64,000 nt of DNA from a virus. Each line of letters starts with the position of its first letter. Position 1 is the first letter of the stretch. The stretch is taken from the IMG/VR virus record IMGVR_UViG_3300029305_001279, one strand, 5' to 3'. Below are positions 1,976 through 63,178 of this stretch, piece after piece. A program made the position numbers and the translations under genes. The notes beneath the pieces were generated by a model. It did no database searches and was not told the origin of the DNA. It saw only the letters and a list, made by a program, of their open reading frames with translations.

Positions 1976-2368
1976 ATGGATAGATTGACAACTGACAACC
2001 GGAGGACGAACCTTCAGACCTTGCTGAATTATGCCTATGCAAAAGACCGTGCCGTGCATCTGGTATTCGGCAACGATGAAGACAACATCCCCCTTGCCGA
2101 ATACATCGCACTTCAGGCCGGTGAGCACGGATGCCGCACAGATCCAAGAGAGGTCATGGAAGGTGGCTGCATGGAATGTGACTGCCCCATTGCCATCCTG
2201 AACGCGGTAGCCATTCAGGCAGCAGAGCTTCGGGCCCGGCTGATGATGATCGAGGACATCCTTGGCGATACCTACGACCTGGATCACCTCCGGGAGCTGA
2301 TGACCGCCGACCGGGAAGGCCGAACTGATAAAACCAAACAAGGAGATCTGAACCATGGAAAACATTGA
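1976..2368 (+). CDS. hypothetical protein
   Basis: ATG 1976 lies 7 nt after AGGAG (MDRLTTDN...), in the frame of ORF 1925..2368. Confidence 0.55.
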   Translation: MDRLTTDNRRTNLQTLLNYAYAKDRAVHLVFGNDEDNIPLAEYIALQAGEHGCRTDPREVMEGGCMECDCPIAILNAVAIQAAELRARLMMIEDILGDTYDLDHLRELMTADREGRTDKTKQGDLNHGKH

Positions 2369-2657
2369 ATTCATCCGATCCAAACTGACCAATGCCGAGC
2401 TTCTGGCAGGTCTGGCAGAGGAAGCCACCGAACTGGCCCATGCTGCGCTGAAGATACGCCGCGTCATGGATGGCAAGAACTACACGCCTGTCACCTTCGA
2501 CGAGGCATTTGCAAACCTCAAGGAAGAAATCGGCGATGTGCTGCTGTGTCTGGAAATGGTGGGCCTCACGGTGGAACTCGAATCCTACCGGAAGGACATG
2601 GATGCCAAGCTCGAACGCTGGGTGCGCCGGCTGAAAGGTGAAACCAAGGAGGGATGA
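2355..2657 (+). CDS. small MazG-like nucleotide pyrophosphohydrolase
   Basis: EEATELAHAALK and EEIGDVLLCLEMV resemble the paired EExxE / ExxGD(V/L)L helices of MazG-type NTP-PPases. Confidence 0.55.
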   Translation: MENIEFIRSKLTNAELLAGLAEEATELAHAALKIRRVMDGKNYTPVTFDEAFANLKEEIGDVLLCLEMVGLTVELESYRKDMDAKLERWVRRLKGETKEG

Positions 2658-2757
2658 CCATGGCCGGTACATACCGCCGTTACCCCCTGTGAGGCATTCG
2701 TGATAACTGCCTGCCGAAGCTGTATGGCTTCCTAAAGATTGGAGTCTAAAAATAGCC

Positions 2758-3963
2758 ATGGAAGAAATATCGAGGAGTAACAAGCAATGGACCAAGGAAG
2801 AAGAGAACTACCTCCAGGAGAAGTGGGGAATAGTGTCTATCCCTAGCATTGCAAAACATCTGGGGCGCTCGGTTCACGCAATCAAGATTAGAGCAGGACG
2901 AATGGGATTAGGACCAGTCTTGATGGGTGGCGACTATATCACTCTGAACCAACTGCTATACGCCGTAAAAGGCACCAATGCCGGAGGAAACTACACGCTG
3001 AAAAGCTGGGTTGAAAACCGAGGGCTGCCGGTCCACACCAAGAAAGTCGTCAACAACAGATTCCGCGTGGTCTACCTGCATGAATTCTGGGACTGGGCGG
3101 AGAAAAACCGCTCATTCCTGGACTTCTCAAAAATGGAACCGCTCGCCCTGGGAGAAGAACCGCCATGGGTAGCAGAGCAGCGGAAGAATGACTTCCACGC
3201 GTATTCCCTCCAACGGAAAGACCAATGGACCCCGGACGAGGATTCGCGGCTGAAGATGCTCCTCAATCAGCACAAATATGGATATGCCGAACTGTCAGAA
3301 ATGCTCCGCCGGTCAGCCGGAGCCATCCAGAGACGCATCTGCGACCTCGGCATAAAAGAGAGGCCGGTGAAGGCTGATAACCATGGTGAGAATGCCAAAT
3401 GGACTGATAGCGACTTCAAAATCCTGGCAGACGGCATCCGCCGAGGCGAAGGTTATACCACAATCAGCAGGAAGATAGGTAAATCCGAAAAAGCCATAAG
3501 AGGGAAAGTCTATTTCGTGTACCTGACCGAAAGTGCCGATAAAGTCCGGGGAATGATGGGAAATGGTCCCTGGGGAGCAGGGGCGCCGGCGCCGACTGTC
3601 AAGCAGGCAATCGTTCTTTCCAGAACCAGGACTGACACGAAACTACAGCTAGAGCGGCTCTGTGATGTCCTGCGGCATCGAGCAAAACAGCTGAAGGGAA
3701 AGGACTACGACCGGTACTTCCAGCGAGCCATGTGCGACAATTGGGACGACCTCCATGGTGAGTGCAAGGCCGGATGCGAGGACTGTGATAGCTGCACCGA
3801 GTTCATCCGGATCAGACCCCAATATTGTGTGCGTTGCGGCGCCACATTCTTTGAGCGATCAGAAAACCGTGTGTGCCAACCATGCAGGGTAGCTCGCCGA
3901 AAGATGGCATACAAGAAATACCGGCACCTCTACAAAGAAGTGGCCAAGAAAGAGGAGGACTGA
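2758..3963 (+). CDS. DNA-binding protein with three Myb/SANT-like repeats and a C-terminal Cys-rich domain
   Basis: Three W-x-acidic repeats (WTKEEENYL, WTPDEDSRLKML, WTDSDFKILADGI), each followed by a basic helix. C-terminus reads CxxxC..C..C...C..C...C..C. Confidence 0.55.
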   Translation: MEEISRSNKQWTKEEENYLQEKWGIVSIPSIAKHLGRSVHAIKIRAGRMGLGPVLMGGDYITLNQLLYAVKGTNAGGNYTLKSWVENRGLPVHTKKVVNNRFRVVYLHEFWDWAEKNRSFLDFSKMEPLALGEEPPWVAEQRKNDFHAYSLQRKDQWTPDEDSRLKMLLNQHKYGYAELSEMLRRSAGAIQRRICDLGIKERPVKADNHGENAKWTDSDFKILADGIRRGEGYTTISRKIGKSEKAIRGKVYFVYLTESADKVRGMMGNGPWGAGAPAPTVKQAIVLSRTRTDTKLQLERLCDVLRHRAKQLKGKDYDRYFQRAMCDNWDDLHGECKAGCEDCDSCTEFIRIRPQYCVRCGATFFERSENRVCQPCRVARRKMAYKKYRHLYKEVAKKEED

Positions 3964-10174: not shown

Positions 10175-12077
10175 ATGAAATTAGGAAGCCTTTTTGATGG
10201 GTCGGGAGGATTCCCGCTCGCAGGAGAGCTTTGCGGCATAGAGCCGCGCTGGGCGGCTGAGATAGAGCCGTACCCAATCGCCGTTACAAGGGGGCGTTTC
10301 CCCTAACTTGGTACACCTTGGAAGTGTGACCGAGATCAACGGCGCAGAAATAGAAGCAGTAGATGTAATCACCTTTGGATCGCCGTGCCAGGATCTTTCC
10401 GTGGCTGGAAAGCGGGCAGGGCTGAAGCACTCAGCCAACGGCGACGATGAAACCACACGCAGCGGCCTATTCATGGAAGCCGTGCGAATCATCAAGGAAA
10501 TGAGGAAAGCCACAAATGGAAAATATCCGAAGTATGCAATATGGGAAAATGTCATGGGCGCCTTCAGCTCAAATGCCGGCGACGACTTCCGTGTCGTCCT
10601 CGAAGAACTCGTCAAAATCTGCGAACCGGAAGCACCCCCGATACCTTCGCCTGGTAAAGCGGGATGGCCATACGCCGACTGCATCATGGGAAACGGATTC
10701 AGCCTTGCTTACCGTGTTTTCGATGCGCAATACTGGCCCGGCACCCCTCAACGCAGAAAACGTATCTACCTTGTCCTCGATCTTACAGGCGAATGTGCCG
10801 AAAAAATACTATTTGAGCGCGAAGGCTTGCGAGGGCATTCTGAGAAGAGCCGAGCGCCGTGGGAAGGAGCTGCCGGAGATCCTCAAGGCCGCTCTGGAAC
10901 AGACGATCCAGAGAGCAGCATAATAGCCATCGATCAACAAGGCGGCAAAGGCAACGCAAATTATGCCGTCGATGTGATGCCTACACTTTGCAGCGATAGC
11001 CATGGCACCCCTCATGCGGTAGCATACGGTGTAACGAGCAAAGGTAATGGAGATAGCTTCATCTCAGAGGAACGGCATACCGCTTTATCTACAGGCGGAG
11101 GCCAACCGGGGCAGGGATATCCATGTGTGATGCAGCCCATAGCCTTCACCCAGAACCAGAGGGACGAACTGAGAGATCTGGGAGACAAAGCCGGAACCAT
11201 ACAAGCGGCGCCAGGAACGCATCAGCAGACCTTCATCATCGATAACATCGGAGGTCAAGCGGAATATGGAGTAGAAAGCACCGTAAACGGCACCCTTCGA
11301 GCTGGTGGGCTGGGCGCTATTTGCTACGATGCCAGAGGAAATGGTGATGGTAAAACCGTCAATACGATCACCGGTGACCACAACAACCGCATAACAGATT
11401 ATAGCTCTGTGGTGGTGTATAACGGTGAGAACATCACAAATCCAACGAACAAAGCAAACCCACAACCCGGTGACCCATGCCACACACTTGGAACCGATAG
11501 CAGGAATCACCTCGTATACTGCCTCCAAGGAAACGTCATTGACAGAGCCAATTCTGCCAGATGCAATGGCGAAGGATGGAAAGAGGATGTGTGCTACACC
11601 CTGAATACCATCGACCGACCGGCTGTATCATACTCAACCGATGTCGGATTCTTTAATACCTGCGAGGATGTGTCCCCGACCATGCTTGCAAGGATGTACA
11701 AAGACCCTCACCTCGTATGCTACGAGGAAGAACCGCAATACATAGTCCGTCGCCTCACCCCTACCGAGTGCGCCAGACTGCAAGGCTTCCCAGACCGATG
11801 GGGAGACATACCACACAAAGAAAACCTCACGGACGAAGAGTACAGCTTCTGGCTGAACGTCCGAAACACCCACGCAGCCATCAACGGCAGAACTACGAAA
11901 GAATACACCAAGGATCAAATCCTCAAATGGTACAATAAACTTCACTCAGACAGTTCCGAATACAAAATGTGGGGCAATGGGATCGCCTTACCAAATGCCT
12001 TGTATGTCATGCAGGGCATAGCGGAGGCAATTAACCATGGTCGAGATCGATACGGAGAAGTGAAACAGAAAGGATAG
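10175..12077 (+). CDS. DNA (cytosine-5) methyltransferase with a very long multi-TRD-like variable region; reading frame broken at 10304
   Basis: The 43-codon N-terminal piece (ATG 10175, AGGAGG upstream) carries motif I LFDGSGGF and motif II AEIEP, then stops at TAA 10304-10306. The next frame continues with SPCQDLS (IV), ENV (VI), QRRKR (VIII), RRLTPTECARLQGFP (IX) and GNGIA (X). Confidence 0.8.
10298..10307 (+). other. candidate +1 programmed frameshift site UUC-CCC-UAA-C
   Basis: Slipping CCC to CCU and then reading AAC gives ...GRFP-NLVHLG..., a contiguous MTase. AGGGGG lies 6 nt upstream and a bulged hairpin (10310-10331) lies downstream. Confidence 0.5.
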
Positions 12078-12086
12078 CAGGACAGC

Positions 12087-13157
12087 ATGATTAAATTGCT
12101 TATTGGCGGTTCCCCATGCACATTCTGGAGCATCGCCCAGAAGAATGGACGGGAAACCGAAGCAGAGGGCATGGGTTGGGAGCTGTTTAAGAACTACCTC
12201 ATTGCCAAGGAAAAATTCCAGCCGGACTTTTTCCTTTACGAAAACAACAAATCGGCAGCACAAGCCATCAAGGATCAGATATCACATGAGCTGGGTGTGG
12301 ATCTCATGCACATCAATAGTGCGCTGGTATCCGCGCAGAACCGTCAGCGATTCTACGCATTCAACTGGACGGTGGATCAGCCGGAGGACCGCGGCATTTC
12401 GCTGAACGAAATTCTGGAAGATACACCCGATGAAATAGGCTGCAAAGTTTCCGGAGTCGGATATAGAAACCGCAGAGAGAGCGACGGAAAGCTGTATAGG
12501 CGTTTTGAAACAGACGGCAATCCCAAATCCAACGCTCTGACAACGGTGGACACCGATAGTATGGTTTGCATACCCGCTCACAGCGTCGCACTCCGCGGAC
12601 GGGACCACAGATCTGCTTACGAAGTGAGCACCGGCGAAAAAGCGAATGCTCTCACGGGAAGTACCCAGCAACGGCGCATTATAAGACCTGCTGGAAAATT
12701 GCAAGACGGTATCACTTACGAGGTACATAATGGCCTTATTGAAATAAAAGGGAAAGAGTACCCCATCAATTTACCGGACGGCAGCTATGTGATGCGGCAT
12801 CTGACCCCGATAGAGTGCGAACGCCTACAGACGCTCCCTGATGGCTACACCGCCTGTGTGAGCAAAACCCAGCGACGGAAGGCTTTGGGCAACGGTTGGA
12901 CGGCGGAGGTGATTATTCACATCCTGAACGGCGCTCTGGCAAACGTTCCTCGGGACGAGGAGATTGTGGTGCTGTCCATGTATGACGGTATCGCTACCGG
13001 TCGGTATTGCTTGGACAAGATGGGCTTCACCAACGTGCGCTATTACGCCTACGAGATCGATAAGTACGCAATGCAAGTCGCATTATCGAATTACCCGGAC
13101 ATCATCCATTGCGGTGATGCGTTCGATCTGAGAAACCCGGATTGGACAATTAACTAA
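12087..13157 (+). CDS. DNMT3-like C5 DNA methyltransferase with circularly permuted motif order (IV-X then I-III)
   Basis: The protein starts MIKLLIGGSPCTFWS (IV), then YENN (VI), QNRQRFY (VIII), RHLTPIECERLQTLP (IX), GNGWTAEV (X). It then ends with VVLSMYDGIATG (I), YAYEID (II) and GDAFDL (III). Confidence 0.75.
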   Translation: MIKLLIGGSPCTFWSIAQKNGRETEAEGMGWELFKNYLIAKEKFQPDFFLYENNKSAAQAIKDQISHELGVDLMHINSALVSAQNRQRFYAFNWTVDQPEDRGISLNEILEDTPDEIGCKVSGVGYRNRRESDGKLYRRFETDGNPKSNALTTVDTDSMVCIPAHSVALRGRDHRSAYEVSTGEKANALTGSTQQRRIIRPAGKLQDGITYEVHNGLIEIKGKEYPINLPDGSYVMRHLTPIECERLQTLPDGYTACVSKTQRRKALGNGWTAEVIIHILNGALANVPRDEEIVVLSMYDGIATGRYCLDKMGFTNVRYYAYEIDKYAMQVALSNYPDIIHCGDAFDLRNPDWTIN

Positions 13158-13247: not shown

Positions 13248-13321
13248 GGATCAGCGGGGTGTGGCACCCATCTGCACAAAAGCTGCAGAAAGAGTCGGTT
13301 CGATTCCGGTCTGTTCCACCA
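13248..13321 (+). tRNA. non-canonical tRNA-like gene (anticodon loop CAAAAGC, nominal anticodon AAA, A at position 33)
   Basis: Acceptor GGATCAG/CTGTTCC (one T-T mismatch). D stem GGGT/ACCC with a 5-nt loop. Anticodon stem CTGCA/TGCAG, extendable to 6 bp. T arm GTCGG-TTCGATT-CCGGT. Discriminator A, with CCA encoded. Confidence 0.4.
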
Positions 13322-13696
13322 TGCGTGTGGCTCACGCACCCTTGAAACGATACATAGGGGAAAAGGGCTCTCTGTTTCTGTGGTGCAGCACGCAACAGAG
13401 GTGGCGACATAAATTATTAGATTGGCTGGCTCCGGCTTATAAAATCGAACGGATGCGACCGATGCACCGGCGCAGGGCTGAAAAGTTCCGTGATATTCCT
13501 TGGTATGGCTCTGGAATCGCAGAGCGAGGCGAAAAGGCCACCTGCAACGCGAGCGAAAGAGGCCGGCGGGTGGATAGAAGGATAATTGTGGAGTGGTACC
13601 GGCGGAGCTGAGGTTCCAGGCCGGTGTGTAGTTCACAGTGGTTACAGACCATACCGGGGATATGGTGAAAAGGAATACCCAGGAAAAGGAGAATAT
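13322..13696 (+). ncRNA. candidate structured non-coding RNA region (identity unknown)
   Basis: No credible ORF. Many local and long-range complementary segments, including 13322-13339, 13369-13400 and 13508-13525, plus CACCGGC 13465-13471 pairing with GCCGGTG 13620-13626. It lies between the tRNA-like element and tRNA-Thr. Confidence 0.25.
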
Positions 13697-13773: not shown

Positions 13774-13875
13774 CCGGGCATAGCCCGGCATAATGTCCTC
13801 CTTTTTCTGTTTTCTGACGGCCCGGAAAGACGGGAAGACCTGGGGCGATGGTTATCTATCGCCCTGGGCACCTAC

Positions 13876-13949
13876 GTCGGCGTAGCTCAATGGTAGAGCA
13901 CCTGCCTTCCAAGCAGGCAACGCGGGTTCGATTCCCGTCACCGGCTCCA
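13876..13949 (+). tRNA. tRNA-Gly (anticodon UCC), CCA encoded
   Basis: D arm GCTC-AATGGTA-GAGC, anticodon arm CCTGC-CTTCCAA-GCAGG, T arm GCGGG-TTCGATT-CCCGT. One C-A mismatch in the acceptor stem. Confidence 0.75.
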
Positions 13950-14042
13950 CTTGCTTTCATTCTTTTTCTCCTCTCCTAATGGCGGCTCGGAAAGACGAGA
14001 AGTGCCGTGCAGGCCTGGTAAACCTGCACGGTGCGCCATTAC

Positions 14043-14118: not shown

Positions 14119-14210
14119 AAATACGTAACTATACTTTGCATATTTTCCGGCAAAGATGAAAGTTTGAGCATCAAAACAGAAAAATACGCAAATTGAAAGG
14201 GGGCGATGCC

Positions 14211-15794
14211 ATGATTATTCGTCCGCAGCCGAAGCAGGAGGAATTCCTGAGCAATCCGGCAGACATCATCATTTATGGTGGAGCCGCGGGCGGTGGTTAG
14301 CAAGGTAAGACATACGCCCTCCTCTTGGAAGAGTGCCGCAACAGCGACAACCCACGATTCAACTCGGTAATCTTCCGTAGAAATAACACACAGATCTTCA
14401 CGAACGGCGGTCTCTGGGATTCCGGCATGGCTCTGCTCCCTCTGATCGGCGCACAGCCGAAGAAAACCCCGAAACCGTCCTTCATCTTCCCATCCGGCGC
14501 AAAGGTAACATTCGACCACCTGGAACGTTACAGCGACTGCCTCTCTTACCAGGGCTCGCAGATCGTCTTCATCGGCTTTGACGAGCTGACCCACTTCGAC
14601 GAGGATGTCTTCTGGTATATGCTGTCCCGTAACCGTTCGGACTCCGGTATTCCCGGCTATGTCCGAGCTACCACCAACCCTGACCCTGACTCATGGGTCC
14701 GCACATTCATTGACTGGTGGATTGGCCCTGATGGTCTGGCTATCCCGGAGCGCAGCGGCAAGATCCGCTGGATGATCCGAATCAACGGCGAGGTGGTCTG
14801 GGGCAATTCCCGGATGGAGCTGCTGCAGCGGCAGTTTGATGGTGACATCACCGCCGTGGACAAGAGCCACACATCGACGGATGAACTGTTCGTTCCGGAT
14901 CCAAAGGACAGCAAGATCCAGATCATCGTCAAGCCCGGTGTGGAGGGCACACTGTACATAGCTACTCAGACAAAGCAGTTCTTCCAATGGTCAGGCGGTG
15001 AGTACCGGGAGCTGATGCCCCCGAAGTCCGTGACCTTCATCTGCTCCACATTGCAGGACAATGCCATCCTGATGAAGAATGACCCGAGCTACCTGGCCAA
15101 CCTGAAGGCCCTGCCCCTCGTTGAACAGGAGCGGCTGCTGGGCGGCAACTGGAACATCCGTCCTGCTGCTGGCCTTTACTTCCCTCGTGACAAGGCGAAG
15201 CTCATTGACGAGATACCGGATGACCTGGTGCGTGTTGTCCGCGCATGGGACCTTGCAGGCACAGAGGACAAGAAGAACAACAACCCCGAGGACGGCCCCG
15301 CATACACGGCCGGTGTGCTGATCGGCAAGCGCAAGAGCGGAAAGCTGGTTGTCCTCGACGTTATCAATAAGCGGCTCAATGCCAGCGATGTGCGAAACCT
15401 GGTATTGACCACCGCACGAGCTGACAAGGCAGCATATAAATCCAAATACAGAATCCGCATGAACCAGGATCCCGGCCAGGCCGGTGTGGATCAGAAGGAA
15501 CAGTACATAAAGCTGCTGTCCGGCTTCAGCGTCAACATCGAGCGAGAGTCCGGCAGCAAGGAAGTCCGCGCGGAGCCGCTGTCTGCTCAGTGGATCAACG
15601 GCAATGTGGAAGTCCTGAACAGACCATGGACATCAGAGTACCTGGCCCAGCTGGACGGCTTCCCAGACCGGAAGTTCAAGGATATGGCCGATGCCAGCAA
15701 CACAGGCTTCCTGGAGCTGGAGAAGTTCAACACCGTATCCGTACCGAAGGACAACAGTGCCCTGGCCAAGCAGAGCTACTGGTTCAAGAATTAA
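14211..15794 (+). CDS. terL: terminase large subunit, interrupted by an in-frame TAG at 14298-14300
   Basis: ATG 14211 follows AAGGGGG. The sequence MIIRPQPKQEEFLSNPADIIIYGGAAGGG-TAG-QGKTYALLLEE... stays in one frame throughout, with the Walker A motif straddling the stop. The remaining 489 codons are TerL-like. Confidence 0.8.
14295..14306 (+). other. candidate recoding site GGU-UAG-CAA-GGU (hop or stop read-through)
   Basis: Identical Gly codons flank the stop. Re-pairing of peptidyl-tRNA-Gly from 14295 to 14304 would give YGGAAGGGKTYALL. Confidence 0.35.
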
Positions 15795-57405: not shown

Positions 57406-57924
57406 ATGCTCAATCACATTACCATCATGGGTCGCCTGACAAGGGACCCGGAGCTGCGCCGCACTGGATCCGGAGTCGCCGTGGCCAGCTTCACCGTGGC
57501 CGTTGACCGGGACTTCGGCGGACAGGACGGCCAGAAGGAAACCGACTTCATCGACTGCGTGGCATGGCGTAATACCGGCGAGTTTGTGTCCAAGTATTTC
57601 ACCAAGGGCCGCATGATCGTCGTCGATGGCCGCCTTCAGATCCGCAGCTGGAATGATAAGGACGGCAACAAGCGCCGCACCGCTGAGGTCGTCGCAGAAC
57701 ACTGCTACTTCGGTGACAGTAAGCACGACGACAACCAAGGCAACCAGGGCGGCTACTCTGCACCTGCTGGTGGCTACTCTGCACCGTCTACCGGTTATAG
57801 CGCACCTGCCGGAAACTACGGCACCGGCGGACAGTACGGCGGCTATGGTGGCGGCTACGCATCTCCCGCAGCACCGGCTGGTGACTATGCCATGCTGGAG
57901 GATGAAGGAGAACTGCCCTTCTGA
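57406..57924 (+). CDS. ssb: single-stranded DNA-binding protein
   Basis: MLNHITIMGRLTRDPELRRT...FTVAVDR...DFIDCVAWR...RSWNDKDG, a Gly/Tyr-rich tail, and a C-terminal DEGELPF. Confidence 0.85.
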   Translation: MLNHITIMGRLTRDPELRRTGSGVAVASFTVAVDRDFGGQDGQKETDFIDCVAWRNTGEFVSKYFTKGRMIVVDGRLQIRSWNDKDGNKRRTAEVVAEHCYFGDSKHDDNQGNQGGYSAPAGGYSAPSTGYSAPAGNYGTGGQYGGYGGGYASPAAPAGDYAMLEDEGELPF

Positions 57925-58020: not shown

Positions 58021-58067
58021 TACAGCATGAAAACAGAATAACCACGGAATGGAAGGGGATGGGGAAA

Positions 58068-58850
58068 ATGCCGCAACGCATTATATTTGCGCTTCAAAAA
58101 GGCGGTGTCGGTAAGACATCGAGCACGGTAGCAGTGGCGGAGATCATGGCTGCTGCCGGATACAAGGTGCTGGTCGTAGACTTCGACTCGCAGGGCAATG
58201 CGACGAAGATGCTGACAAAGGAGAGTATTTACAAATACTCAGGCCGCACGATCATGGAGGCCATCAAAGAAAGAGCCGTCACGCCATATATCGTGAATGT
58301 CAAGGAAGGTCTGGATCTGATTCCGGCGGAGGACAAGCTGGCGTTATTTTCCCAGCACATCTATACGAACGATGTCAAGCACCCGTATGCGGTGCTGCAG
58401 CGTCTGCTGGCTCCTGTGGAGTCCGGCTATGATTTTGTTTTCGTGGACGTGGGACCATCACTGGGCGACCACATGATAAATGCCATCGTGTATGCCGATC
58501 ATATCTTTATACCTCTGGACACCGGGGACTTTGCTATGGATGCCATGGTGCGGTTCATCAAGTTCGTGAACGATGCCAGGGAGAAGCGGTTCACAAGAGC
58601 CGAAGTCGGCGGGATCTTCCTGACCATGCGAGACGGCCGGCCGACAAAATATGAGCGGGAGATATCCGAGGGGATCCGTGAAGCATACGGCGACCTGATC
58701 TTCAAGACGGAGATCCATCGCCGTGTGAAAATCAAAGAAATGTCGTCAGAAGGGGTAGACATCGTGGCACCGGCCATGGAAGACTATCTGGATCTGACTG
58801 AGGAAATACTGCAACGAGTAAGAAAGGAGAAACACCATGAGCAAACATAA
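58068..58850 (+). CDS. parA: ParA/Soj-family partition ATPase
   Basis: Deviant Walker A QKGGVGKTSS and the DFDSQGN pattern. ATG 58068 is better spaced from GGAAGGGG than ATG 58059. Confidence 0.8.
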   Translation: MPQRIIFALQKGGVGKTSSTVAVAEIMAAAGYKVLVVDFDSQGNATKMLTKESIYKYSGRTIMEAIKERAVTPYIVNVKEGLDLIPAEDKLALFSQHIYTNDVKHPYAVLQRLLAPVESGYDFVFVDVGPSLGDHMINAIVYADHIFIPLDTGDFAMDAMVRFIKFVNDAREKRFTRAEVGGIFLTMRDGRPTKYEREISEGIREAYGDLIFKTEIHRRVKIKEMSSEGVDIVAPAMEDYLDLTEEILQRVRKEKHHEQT

Positions 58851-62443: not shown

Positions 62444-63178
62444 ATGACTGAAGCAACTAAGACCGAAGCAATCGATATCAAGTCCATGAACATCTTCCAG
62501 CGTGTGGCGGCCATCACCGCCGAGCTGGGTACCGTTGCAAAGAACCTGAGCGTCAAGGCGGGCGGCGGCTCCTACAAGGCCGTGTCCGAGCGCGATATCA
62601 TCGATGCCGTCAAGCCTCTGGAGGAAAAGTACCGGGTGTACTCTTACCCCAGCATCCGCGAGATCATCGATGACGAAATTCTGGAGGGTGAGAAGACCTA
62701 CAACGGCAACACCACGAAGACGACTACCTTCTTCACCCGGATCAAGACCGTGTATACCTTCGTGAACATCGACAAACCCGAGGAAACCTTCTCCACCATC
62801 GTGTTTTCTGAGGGCATCGATCCCGGCGACAAGGGCTCCGGTAAGGCCATGACCTACGCTGACAAGTATGCCATGATGAAGGCCTACAAGATCAGCACCG
62901 GCGACGATCCCGACCAGAACGCAAGCGAGGAGAACCGCTACACCCGCTCCGGCAACGGCAACAGAGGGAACCAGTATCAGGGCCAGTACCAGAACCAGCC
63001 CCGTCCCGGTCCCGTGTACGCCTGCCAGAAGTGCGGCAGCCAGCTTCAGGACACGAGACGCACGGACGGATCCATCATGACGGCATCCGAGCTGGCACTC
63101 TATTCCTCTCAGCGCTTCGGTGCAGTCCTTTGCCCTGACTGCCAGAGAGCAGCAACGACCAATCGCGGCCAGAAGTAA
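62444..63178 (+). CDS. ERF-family single-strand annealing protein
   Basis: GSYKAVSERDIIDAVKPLEEKY...GKAMTYADKYAMMKAYKISTGDDPD. Confidence 0.6.
   Translation: MTEATKTEAIDIKSMNIFQRVAAITAELGTVAKNLSVKAGGGSYKAVSERDIIDAVKPLEEKYRVYSYPSIREIIDDEILEGEKTYNGNTTKTTTFFTRIKTVYTFVNIDKPEETFSTIVFSEGIDPGDKGSGKAMTYADKYAMMKAYKISTGDDPDQNASEENRYTRSGNGNRGNQYQGQYQNQPRPGPVYACQKCGSQLQDTRRTDGSIMTASELALYSSQRFGAVLCPDCQRAATTNRGQK

Follow-up and report, generated by a model that had tools for sequence, protein, structure and literature searches.

How can a virus make its terminase when a stop codon stands inside the Walker A loop of the large subunit? The question is raised by IMG/VR record IMGVR_UViG_3300029305_001279 (64,000 nt, the whole stretch of DNA analysed here and called the window), in which the gene for the terminase large subunit, TerL (nt 14211-15794, + strand), begins with ATG at 14211 and carries an in-frame TAG at nt 14298-14300, within the Walker A loop. 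The local codons are GGC (14289), GGT (14292), GGT (14295), TAG (14298), CAA (14301), GGT (14304), AAG (14307) and ACA, as an earlier note on this DNA had written, and its statement that the frame does not change across the TAG also holds, the frame being open to the TAA that ends at 15794. Judged against homologues, the TAG is part of a 9-nt insertion (TAG CAA GGT, so that the UAG is followed by C). Its most probable decoding, to which we give about 70%, is a programmed short-range bypass, a natural 'stop-hop', in which the ribosome would pass from the GGU before the stop to the GGU after it. The features involved are as follows.

14195-14203, + strand: ribosome-binding site of TerL, GAAAGGGGG, 7 nt 5' of the ATG (read from the sequence)
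14211-14297, + strand: TerL coding segment 1, codons 1-29 (MIIRPQPKQEEFLSNPADIIIYGGAAGGG; translation, aligning with the N-termini of relatives)
14295-14297, + strand: proposed take-off codon GGU (Gly29), in the ribosomal P site while UAG is in the A site (sequence comparison)
14298-14303, + strand: proposed coding gap UAG CAA, skipped in the protein (missing from 155/155 uninterrupted relatives)
14304-14306, + strand: proposed landing codon GGU, which would re-pair with peptidyl-tRNA-Gly and add no residue (GGC in relative L173)
14307-15794, + strand: TerL coding segment 2, from AAG (Walker A K30), 495 codons to the TAA (translation, Pfam)

The protein is a terminase of the Terminase_6N/6C class, with an N-terminal ATPase and a C-terminal RNaseH-like nuclease (Pfam Terminase_6N, 1.1e-19; Terminase_6C, 1e-10). 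Translation of the frame after the TAG begins QGKTYALLLEE; after a hop the Walker A motif would be GAAGGGKT, and the Walker B motif is IVFIGFDE. In aligned relatives the counterpart of the ribosome-binding site is an A-run followed by a G-rich run before the ATG, with AAAGGGGG in most of them and AAAGACGG, AAAGAGGG or AAGGGGGG in the others.

Survey of relatives and catalogue of inserts

Relatives were gathered by tblastn, beginning with a close IMG/VR set and adding 160 from viral and genome collections and 34 from metagenomes, which gave 206 TerL loci (cited below by their L numbers) besides the window; hop-corrected proteins were aligned back onto the DNA. Among the N-termini surveyed, 155 distinct ones were uninterrupted, and 15 distinct alleles were interrupted, at 16 sites in all. 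Several of the relatives come from human-gut samples, and the related TerL genes, two hop-bearing ones included, are mostly from gut Clostridia genome bins.

In all 155 uninterrupted relatives the motif reads [YF]GGxxGGGK[ST] and the distance from Y22 to K30 is constant; the codons TAG-CAA-GGT are missing from every one of them. Removing 9 nt from the window sequence gives YGGAAGGGKT, the commonest sequence of the family (85/155) and also that of the close IMG/VR relatives, which have nothing between GGG and K. The earlier note had looked to homologues for either a sense codon in place of the TAG or three extra codons; the aligned homologues have no codon there at all.

Comparable mini-inserts of +4 to +9 nt were found at four N-terminal positions of TerL (a slash marks the junction between residues): L13/S14 (site a), G24/A25 (site b), G28 or G29/K30 in the Walker A motif (site c) and L65/W66 (site d). 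The alleles, written as take-off codon, gap and landing codon, are these.

Site a, L13/S14: CTT TAG CTA (L001); CTT TAG CTT (L173, L008, L061)
Site a, further alleles: CTT TAG CTC (L181-184); CTT TGA CTT (L174, L095)
Site b, G24/A25: GGT TA GGT (L100); GGC TA GGC (L069); GGT A GGT, with AGG in the A site (L190)
Site c, Walker A G/K junction: GGT TAGCAA GGT (window); GGT TAGCAC GGC (L173); GGT TAA GGT (L179)
Site c, further alleles: GGT TA GGT (L178); GGC TAACT GGT (L007)
Site d, L65/W66: CTT TAG CTT (L010)

Thus L007 has an 8-nt, frame-changing insert in the same loop as the window (GGC GGC TAA CT GGT GGG AAG). In L001 and L008 the sequence TTT CTT TAG CTA/CTT lies 16 codons upstream of that loop, while in L010 CTT TAG CTT falls at codon 65; L173 carries two hop sites, a and c, in one gene. 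Deleting the gap and the landing triplet gives back the family consensus protein exactly at 16/16 sites.

The interrupted alleles are spread across at least eight lineages. One clade, 95-98% identical, holds no-insert, site-d, +5 site-c and +6 site-c alleles side by side, and the inserts therefore turn over quickly. Pattern scans of IMG/VR added the site-a alleles L380, L385 and L388, and showed that other TerL subfamilies carry GGT TA followed by GGT or GGC and AAR at Walker A (L393, L397, L405, L407, L410, L413 = L418, L417 and L419) or GGT TAG GGC AAA at the same motif (L396 = L412). Pfam assigned Terminase_6N to four of these proteins that were tested and Terminase_3 to L419. A naive scan for a codon, a stop, a gap and the same codon again within long open reading frames (ORFs) returned more than 180 matches on both strands; it was uninformative without homology and was dropped.

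Could the window insert be a sequencing or assembly artefact, as the earlier note had allowed? This is extremely unlikely. A 9-nt insertion outside a homopolymer is atypical as a sequencing error, and L173, from an independent metagenome, has the same insert with two substitutions, which contradicts an error in the window. Dozens of analogous inserts come from independent assemblies, and the recovery of identical interrupted alleles from different metagenomes excludes an assembly artefact. Origin of the inserts by tandem duplication followed by a nonsense mutation was also considered; it fits L008 and L010 and does not fit L001, L061, L095 or the 4-nt and 5-nt inserts.

Other genes of the same loci were compared. 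No hop-like inserts were found in the portal, TerS or methyltransferase genes of the fetched loci, and among the genes compared such inserts are, as far as the sequences indicate, specific to the TerL N-terminus. The portal gene, aligned for 65 of the same loci, had no inserts; what it did show was a single nonsense codon, a frameshift in L107 and broken frames in L192, a short contig. The nonsense codon, in L017 (at ~4267 in the locus), is a TAG standing in place of a conserved Trp codon (TAT GGC TAG AGT) with no insertion, so that, in contrast to the TerL inserts, it represents ordinary nonsense or a site of readthrough. Within TerL, the only other interruptions in the survey were one scaffold gap and two inteins. 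One intein lies at Walker B in L009 (~2050-3000; PLIC/CEES...VNKN/CFDELTHF), and the other is a mini-intein in L074 (2606-2962) that follows the Walker A lysine directly (GGGK/AQPL...VTHN/SYGLL). The inteins show that mobile elements do target the P-loop DNA of the TerL family.

Codon matching across the gaps

In 16/16 sites, including the window (GGT and GGT), the landing triplet has the same first two bases as the take-off codon; if the sites are independent, as they appear to be, and a match has a chance of 1/16 per site, the probability of this result is ~5e-20. In 4/16 sites the two triplets differ, and then at the wobble position only (GGT to GGC, GGC to GGT, CTT to CTA and CTT to CTC). 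Because the mismatches are confined to the wobble position, anticodon pairing fits the pattern and a nucleic-acid repeat mechanism does not. The codon that enters the A site after take-off is TAG, TGA or TAA, with the rare codon AGG in one allele.

The choice of take-off codon is also biased. All eight Leu sites use CTT, which makes up 23% of codons at residue L13 and 15% at residue L65 in uninterrupted alleles (p ~5e-6). The eight Gly sites use GGT (6/8) or GGC (2/8), GGT accounting for ~20% at the same positions in uninterrupted alleles, and none uses GGA or GGG, though these make up ~40% elsewhere. The E-site codon is TTT in 7/7 site-a alleles versus 45% of uninterrupted ones, and the base after the stop is C in 11/15 sites. 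A C after the stop is the weakest termination context in Escherichia coli, CUU and GGU are both read through a G34-U wobble pair under standard wobble rules, and CUU followed by a stop and C forms the shift-prone core of the prfB frameshift site.

These regularities bear on the idea that the 9 nt are lost from the nucleic acid before translation, whether by deletion between GGT repeats in a DNA subpopulation, by transcriptional realignment, or by RNA editing or splicing. A 3-nt direct repeat does flank the insert, as such a process might use, but the repeats are just 3 nt long and are imperfect exactly at wobble in 4/16 sites. In addition, a stop or rare codon always stands directly 3' of the first repeat, which no mechanism of this kind requires; the CTT and GGT take-off bias and the C after the stop are features of translation; and the same interrupted alleles were assembled independently from different samples. 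We consider removal of this sort very unlikely.

A second alternative is that an amino acid is inserted at the UAG, through near-cognate readthrough or a suppressor tRNA of host or phage, to give a P-loop three residues longer. The window insert is in frame and the resulting GGGxQGKT still formally fits GxxxxGKT. TAG is also the rarest stop in the window (among 73 ORF-sized frames on the + strand, 35 end in TAA, 31 in TGA and 7 in TAG), and ARAGORN calls a tRNA(UUA) in relative L008. The anticodon stem of that 'tRNA-Stop' does not pair, however, when read from the sequence. In the window no tRNA(CUA) was found by ARAGORN at normal or relaxed settings or by Rfam, so that a suppressor tRNA was rejected. 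General TAG recoding of the window was likewise rejected: TAG ends seven ordinary ORFs, and among same-frame ORF pairs split by one stop, TerL alone needs its TAG decoded. None of the 155 relatives tolerates a length change in the P-loop, and readthrough gives no reason for matched flanking codons at 16/16 sites. Sister alleles at the same G/K junction have +5 and +8 inserts that change the frame, or use TAA. Over the whole catalogue, the use of all three stops and of AGG, together with a frame change in 5/16 sites (+4, +5 or +8), means that a suppressor tRNA or readthrough is not the common mechanism. Suppression of the UAG, which the earlier note had listed as an alternative, is contradicted by these observations, and we regard decoding as an amino acid as unlikely.

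The preferred reading, a hop by re-pairing of the peptidyl-tRNA, accommodates the sister inserts of +5, +6 and +8 nt at the window's own junction, which would be decodable only in this way. By its sequence marks, namely matched codons, a slow A-site codon and a gap that appears to lie outside the protein, the window would belong to the peptidyl-tRNA re-pairing class.

Selection on the interrupted genes

An in-frame stop in an essential gene is a classic mark of a pseudogene, and the simplest alternative to decoding is that the insert inactivated TerL, either in a defective prophage or in a phage relying on a helper terminase. A second gene of the window, the first C5-methyltransferase (MTase1, described below), is also frame-disrupted, and there is no cultured relative to prove viability. 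The ratio of non-synonymous to synonymous divergence (dN/dS, with synonymous divergence dS) was calculated by the Nei-Gojobori method for pairs that include interrupted genes.

Window and L173, both with a P-loop insert: dS 0.79, dN/dS 0.089
Window and L001: dS 0.63, dN/dS 0.104
L178 and L179, with +5 and +6 at the same junction: dS 0.38, dN/dS 0.048
L006 and L010: dS 0.35, dN/dS 0.038

Values of 0.04-0.10 between interrupted pairs, at dS up to 0.8 and with same-insert pairs included, are not those expected of dead genes. The interrupted TerL genes have no further stop, frameshift or indel in ~500 codons, the other large structural genes of the window are intact, and the portal genes of the same loci have rare, ordinary lesions only. 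Nor would decay account for inserts that have matched codons in 16/16 cases and can all be removed without trace. Judged from these patterns, the interrupted TerL genes are apparently functional and under strong purifying selection. The earlier note's suggestion of an amber mutation in a defective prophage is contradicted by the value of 0.089 against L173 and by the intact large genes, and inactivation of TerL is quite unlikely.

Two comparisons concern the inserts themselves. L173, a 90% identical relative, has kept the insert as GGT TAG CAC GGC; in the 80 nt around the two inserts there are about nine differences, mostly synonymous, so that the insert is old rather than recently transferred. 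Between L178 and L179 the gap differs in length by 1 nt; such an indel does no harm in a gap that is skipped and would be lethal in one that is translated.

Proposed decoding and its purpose

We infer the hop in the window TerL from comparison of sequences, and it would proceed as follows. The ribosome would translate codons 1-29 and pause with peptidyl-tRNA-Gly on GGU 14295-14297 in the P site and the weak terminator UAG-C in the A site. In a fraction of ribosomes the anticodon would release, the mRNA would slip 9 nt forward and the same tRNA would re-pair with GGU 14304-14306, after which decoding would restart at AAG 14307. The product, ...IIIYGGAAGGGKTYALL..., would be identical to the family P-loop in length and sequence, while ribosomes that do not hop would terminate and release a 29-residue peptide. 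The hop from GGU 14295 to GGU 14304 had been proposed in the earlier note, and the comparison supports it, since the product YGGAAGGGKT is the family consensus.

Several points weigh against this interpretation. Stop-hops without stimulatory signals are reported to occur at a low level (bioRxiv 10.1101/2024.12.09.627546), and L173 would need two of them in one gene; it follows either that efficiency in the native host is much higher or that very little TerL is enough. No stimulatory mRNA structure was found beyond shuffled controls in the window, L173, L178 or L179 (fold z-scores -0.7 to +0.7), and no cultured relative is closer than 48% identity. The in-frame insert of the window, with its formally acceptable readthrough product, has been mentioned. 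Finally, L398 and L404 (= L420) have 4 nt, TAGC or TAGT, between GGT and AAA, and the landing triplet AGY matches in two of three positions; these alleles may reflect two-of-three pairing or a different event.

Two ideas lead as to purpose. The hop could make TerL output depend on the balance between termination and re-pairing and so act as a throttle or sensor, a role already proposed for the terminase of phiHau3. Alternatively, the insert could abolish a site in the P-loop DNA that a homing endonuclease or intein would attack and leave the protein unchanged, as has been suggested for T4 gene 60; TerL relatives do have inteins, at GGGK/S and at Walker B. Taking the catalogue as a whole, we put at somewhat better than even the chance that natural stop-hops are a recurrent, selected device of phages of gut Clostridia and beyond. 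They would be placed in the first ~70 codons of TerL with stop-started gaps of 1-6 nt, would have the Walker A G/K junction as their main hotspot and re-pairing of Gly or Leu peptidyl-tRNA as their mechanism, would turn over fast, and would serve as a termination-capacity gate or as a scar of endonuclease or intein immunity.

Comparison with known systems

The programmed +1 frameshift of prfB, the gene for release factor 2, at CUU UGA C sets termination against re-pairing and acts as a release-factor sensor. The site-a alleles of TerL resemble it in reading UUU CUU UGA/UAG C. The prfB ribosome shifts +1 onto an overlapping codon, whereas at site a a +1 shift is unproductive and a +6 hop alone restores TerL.

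A close likeness is to the synthetic 'stop-hops' of E. coli, with their matched codons on either side of a stop (Weiss, Dunn, Atkins and Gesteland 1987, cited in PMC5009743), and to tRNA hopping (O'Connor 1989, as summarised in PMC5009743 and bioRxiv 10.1101/2024.12.09.627546). There too a stop lies between the matched codons, re-pairing occurs a short way downstream so that 9 nt give one amino acid, and no elaborate signals are present. The arrangement is found exactly in relatives of the window (CTT TAG CTT, GGT TAA GGT), while the window itself has one extra gap codon, so that 12 nt would give one amino acid. The synthetic sites were engineered or adventitious and worked at a low level; those of TerL are natural, recurrent, in an essential gene and under purifying selection. 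E. coli ribosomes stalled at stops also hop to codons matching the P-site anticodon (PMC6815119). According to the 2016 Atkins review natural in-frame stop hopping was not known (PMC5009743), and the natural cases that this group cites in a 2024 preprint are still limited to gene 60, the terminase candidates and yeast mitochondria (bioRxiv 10.1101/2024.12.09.627546). No description of stop-hops in gut-phage terminases was found in the literature searched. The comparisons support the view that the window and its relatives represent short-range stop-triggered bypassing that is probably natural and recurrent in TerL, a process so far shown mainly in synthetic constructs.

The terminase bypass of phiHau3 and StrepC.1 (Smith et al. 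2013; Antonov et al. 2023, PMC10732093) involves inserts of 7-10 nt that homologues do not have. In phiHau3 these are 10-nt inserts starting with the rare codon UUA, one of them at GWG/KDPLL, and mass spectrometry in E. coli supports bypassing (PMC10732093). Shared with the sites described here are the short terminase insert with no counterpart in homologues, the slow codon that opens the gap and a proposed regulatory role. The trigger in phiHau3 is a rare sense codon tied to the tRNA state of the Streptomyces host, as opposed to a stop codon (and once AGG) here; the window insert is likewise short and at a junction, and its gap starts with UAG and not with UUA. The TerL family and the hosts also differ, the latter being represented here by Clostridia-type genome bins. 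Three of 100 genes were affected by the phiHau3 type, compared with many independent alleles at four positions in the present set, where the gaps are shorter (1-6 nt). By our reading, which is not that of the paper, GWG/KDPLL appears to be the same Walker A G/K junction as in the window (GGG/KTYALL), and unrelated TerL families may therefore share one site. If they do, a single selective cause would be indicated, whether immunity to endonucleases or control of expression.

The earlier note had likened the window site to the bypass of T4 gene 60 (PMC7026636; bioRxiv 10.1101/2022.08.31.505936). What stands is the core arrangement, namely, within a phage gene that is essential, a Gly take-off codon, UAG next to it and a matched Gly codon for landing; membership of the gene 60 family does not. 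In gene 60 a 50-nt gap separates GGA codons, the signals are a nascent peptide, a take-off stem-loop and 5' and 3' stem-loops, and the efficiency is ~50%. It lies in a topoisomerase gene linked to mobA, and its gap is thought to protect against a homing endonuclease (PMC7026636; bioRxiv 10.1101/2022.08.31.505936). The window site is in TerL, with a 6-nt gap, no structure and no endonuclease in the ORFs scanned. Gap length, structure, host gene and neighbours thus led us to reject a gene 60/MobA cassette. The mitochondrial byps of Magnusiomyces differ in being 27-55 nt long, in lying in mitochondrial genes at 81 per genome and in being apparently mobile. Gut phages that have reassigned TAG to Gln share with the window an in-frame TAG in a late gene and an uncultured phage with a tRNA array. 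They differ in that the window has one in-frame TAG, no tRNA(CUA) and TAG used as a terminator, and in that its relatives use TAA or TGA or shift frame.

Natural examples of bypassing are few, comprising T4 gene 60 and its homologues, the Magnusiomyces mitochondria and the phiHau3 candidates. If the present interpretation holds, TerL would add about two dozen natural hop sites of diverse sequence, in-frame as well as frame-changing, that involve two tRNA species, all three stops and gaps of 1-6 nt; these offer a ready series for probing what ribosomes need for take-off and landing. There is also a consequence for annotation, as gene callers split or truncate interrupted TerL genes. When a terminase is found 'interrupted', the common conclusion is that the prophage is defective or that an alternative genetic code is in use, and in this case neither would be correct.

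Genome context of the window

The genes of the window are nearly all on the + strand and the large ones are intact, as in a myovirus-like phage. They include TerS, two C5-methyltransferases, a portal protein, a head-morphogenesis protein, a major head protein, a sheath protein, a tape measure of 1335 residues, a tail fibre, a replication protein, SSB and ERF. Near the right end, SSB, a ParA/MinD-type ATPase and the ERF recombinase are encoded at nt 57406-57924, 58059-58850 and 62444-63178 (all + strand). The ParA-type partition ATPase hints at a plasmid-like prophage lifestyle.

TerL is flanked by tRNA genes, the methyltransferases and the portal gene. A scan of 40 ORFs, which was not exhaustive, revealed neither a translation factor nor a homing endonuclease near it. 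The tRNA array (ARAGORN, Rfam) consists of Thr(UGU), Gly(UCC) and Lys(UUU) together with one odd tRNA-like gene, and the Gly gene is placed as follows.

13876-13949: tRNA-Gly(UCC), 349 nt upstream of the TAG

The proximity of this gene had been offered as a clue to the hop at Gly codons, and the link is unsupported. The tRNA sets upstream of TerL vary from relative to relative and do not track the type of hop: L173 has Ile and Ala, L178 and L179 have none, and Gly(UCC) is present in L095, an allele with a Leu site. The upstream tRNAs are therefore variable cargo, and the tRNA-Gly clue is probably a coincidence.

Other elements near TerL

The first C5-methyltransferase, MTase1 (nt 10175-12077, + strand), is split by an extra T at nt 10301-10306, where TTC CCC T AAC TTG reads CCC TAA C. 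At this junction L208-L211 have TTC, CCC or CCA, and AAT or AAC in one frame, and L207-L226 all read through in one frame. The break is either a plain frameshift mutation or a 'shifty stop', at which tRNA-Pro on CCC would move +1 onto CCU with UAA-C in the A site. It resembles the TerL site in style and is the sole instance seen. The second C5-methyltransferase (nt 12087-13157, + strand) is circularly permuted, beginning with motif IV (GGSPC) and ending with motif I (LSMYDGIATG...), an order common to several relatives (L228, L257, L258).

A conserved non-coding element of ~340 nt lies at nt 13322-13665 (+ strand), between the odd tRNA-like gene and tRNA-Thr, and is present also in L001 (2494-2852), MT835520 (L259, 603-961) and MT835513 (L260, 611-969). 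At least 119 IMG/VR contigs contain its 22-nt core, GGCGCAGGGCTGAAAAGTTCCG, without mismatch. When 34 diverse copies are aligned, they show the invariant blocks AACGGATGCGACC and GGCGCAGGGCTGAAAAGTTCCGTG and a covarying helix, GGTGGCGGC with GCCGCTGT, in which GC, AU and CG pairs are found. In the copies examined the element is within or beside phage tRNA genes, and several copies begin right after a CCA end. Rfam 15 gave no match to it at E <= 10. A permuted tmRNA and an RNase-P-like P4 helix were considered, and neither could be shown.

The spacers before tRNA-Gly and tRNA-Lys contain a repeated structured motif (nt 13816-13875 and 13980-14042, + strand), which is found also in L001 (~2160-2235) and L095 (~2095-2165). 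It is made up of a pyrimidine-rich tract, a small hairpin, GRCGGCYCGGAAAGACGRGAAG, with a compensatory C-G/T-A change, a long covarying hairpin and a closing stem. The core of the motif is present twice exactly in the window, and a further match with two mismatches lies elsewhere; at that tolerance 0.39 matches would be expected. The motif is not in Rfam, and may serve in the processing or regulation of the tRNA array.

The odd tRNA-like gene (nt 13248-13321, + strand) has a CCA end and a good T-arm, but its anticodon loop is aberrant (C-A-AAA-G-C, with A at position 33). ARAGORN calls it tRNA-Phe(AAA), and its Rfam score of 24 bits is below threshold. Oddly looped tRNA-like genes are found also in relatives L003-L005 and L008.

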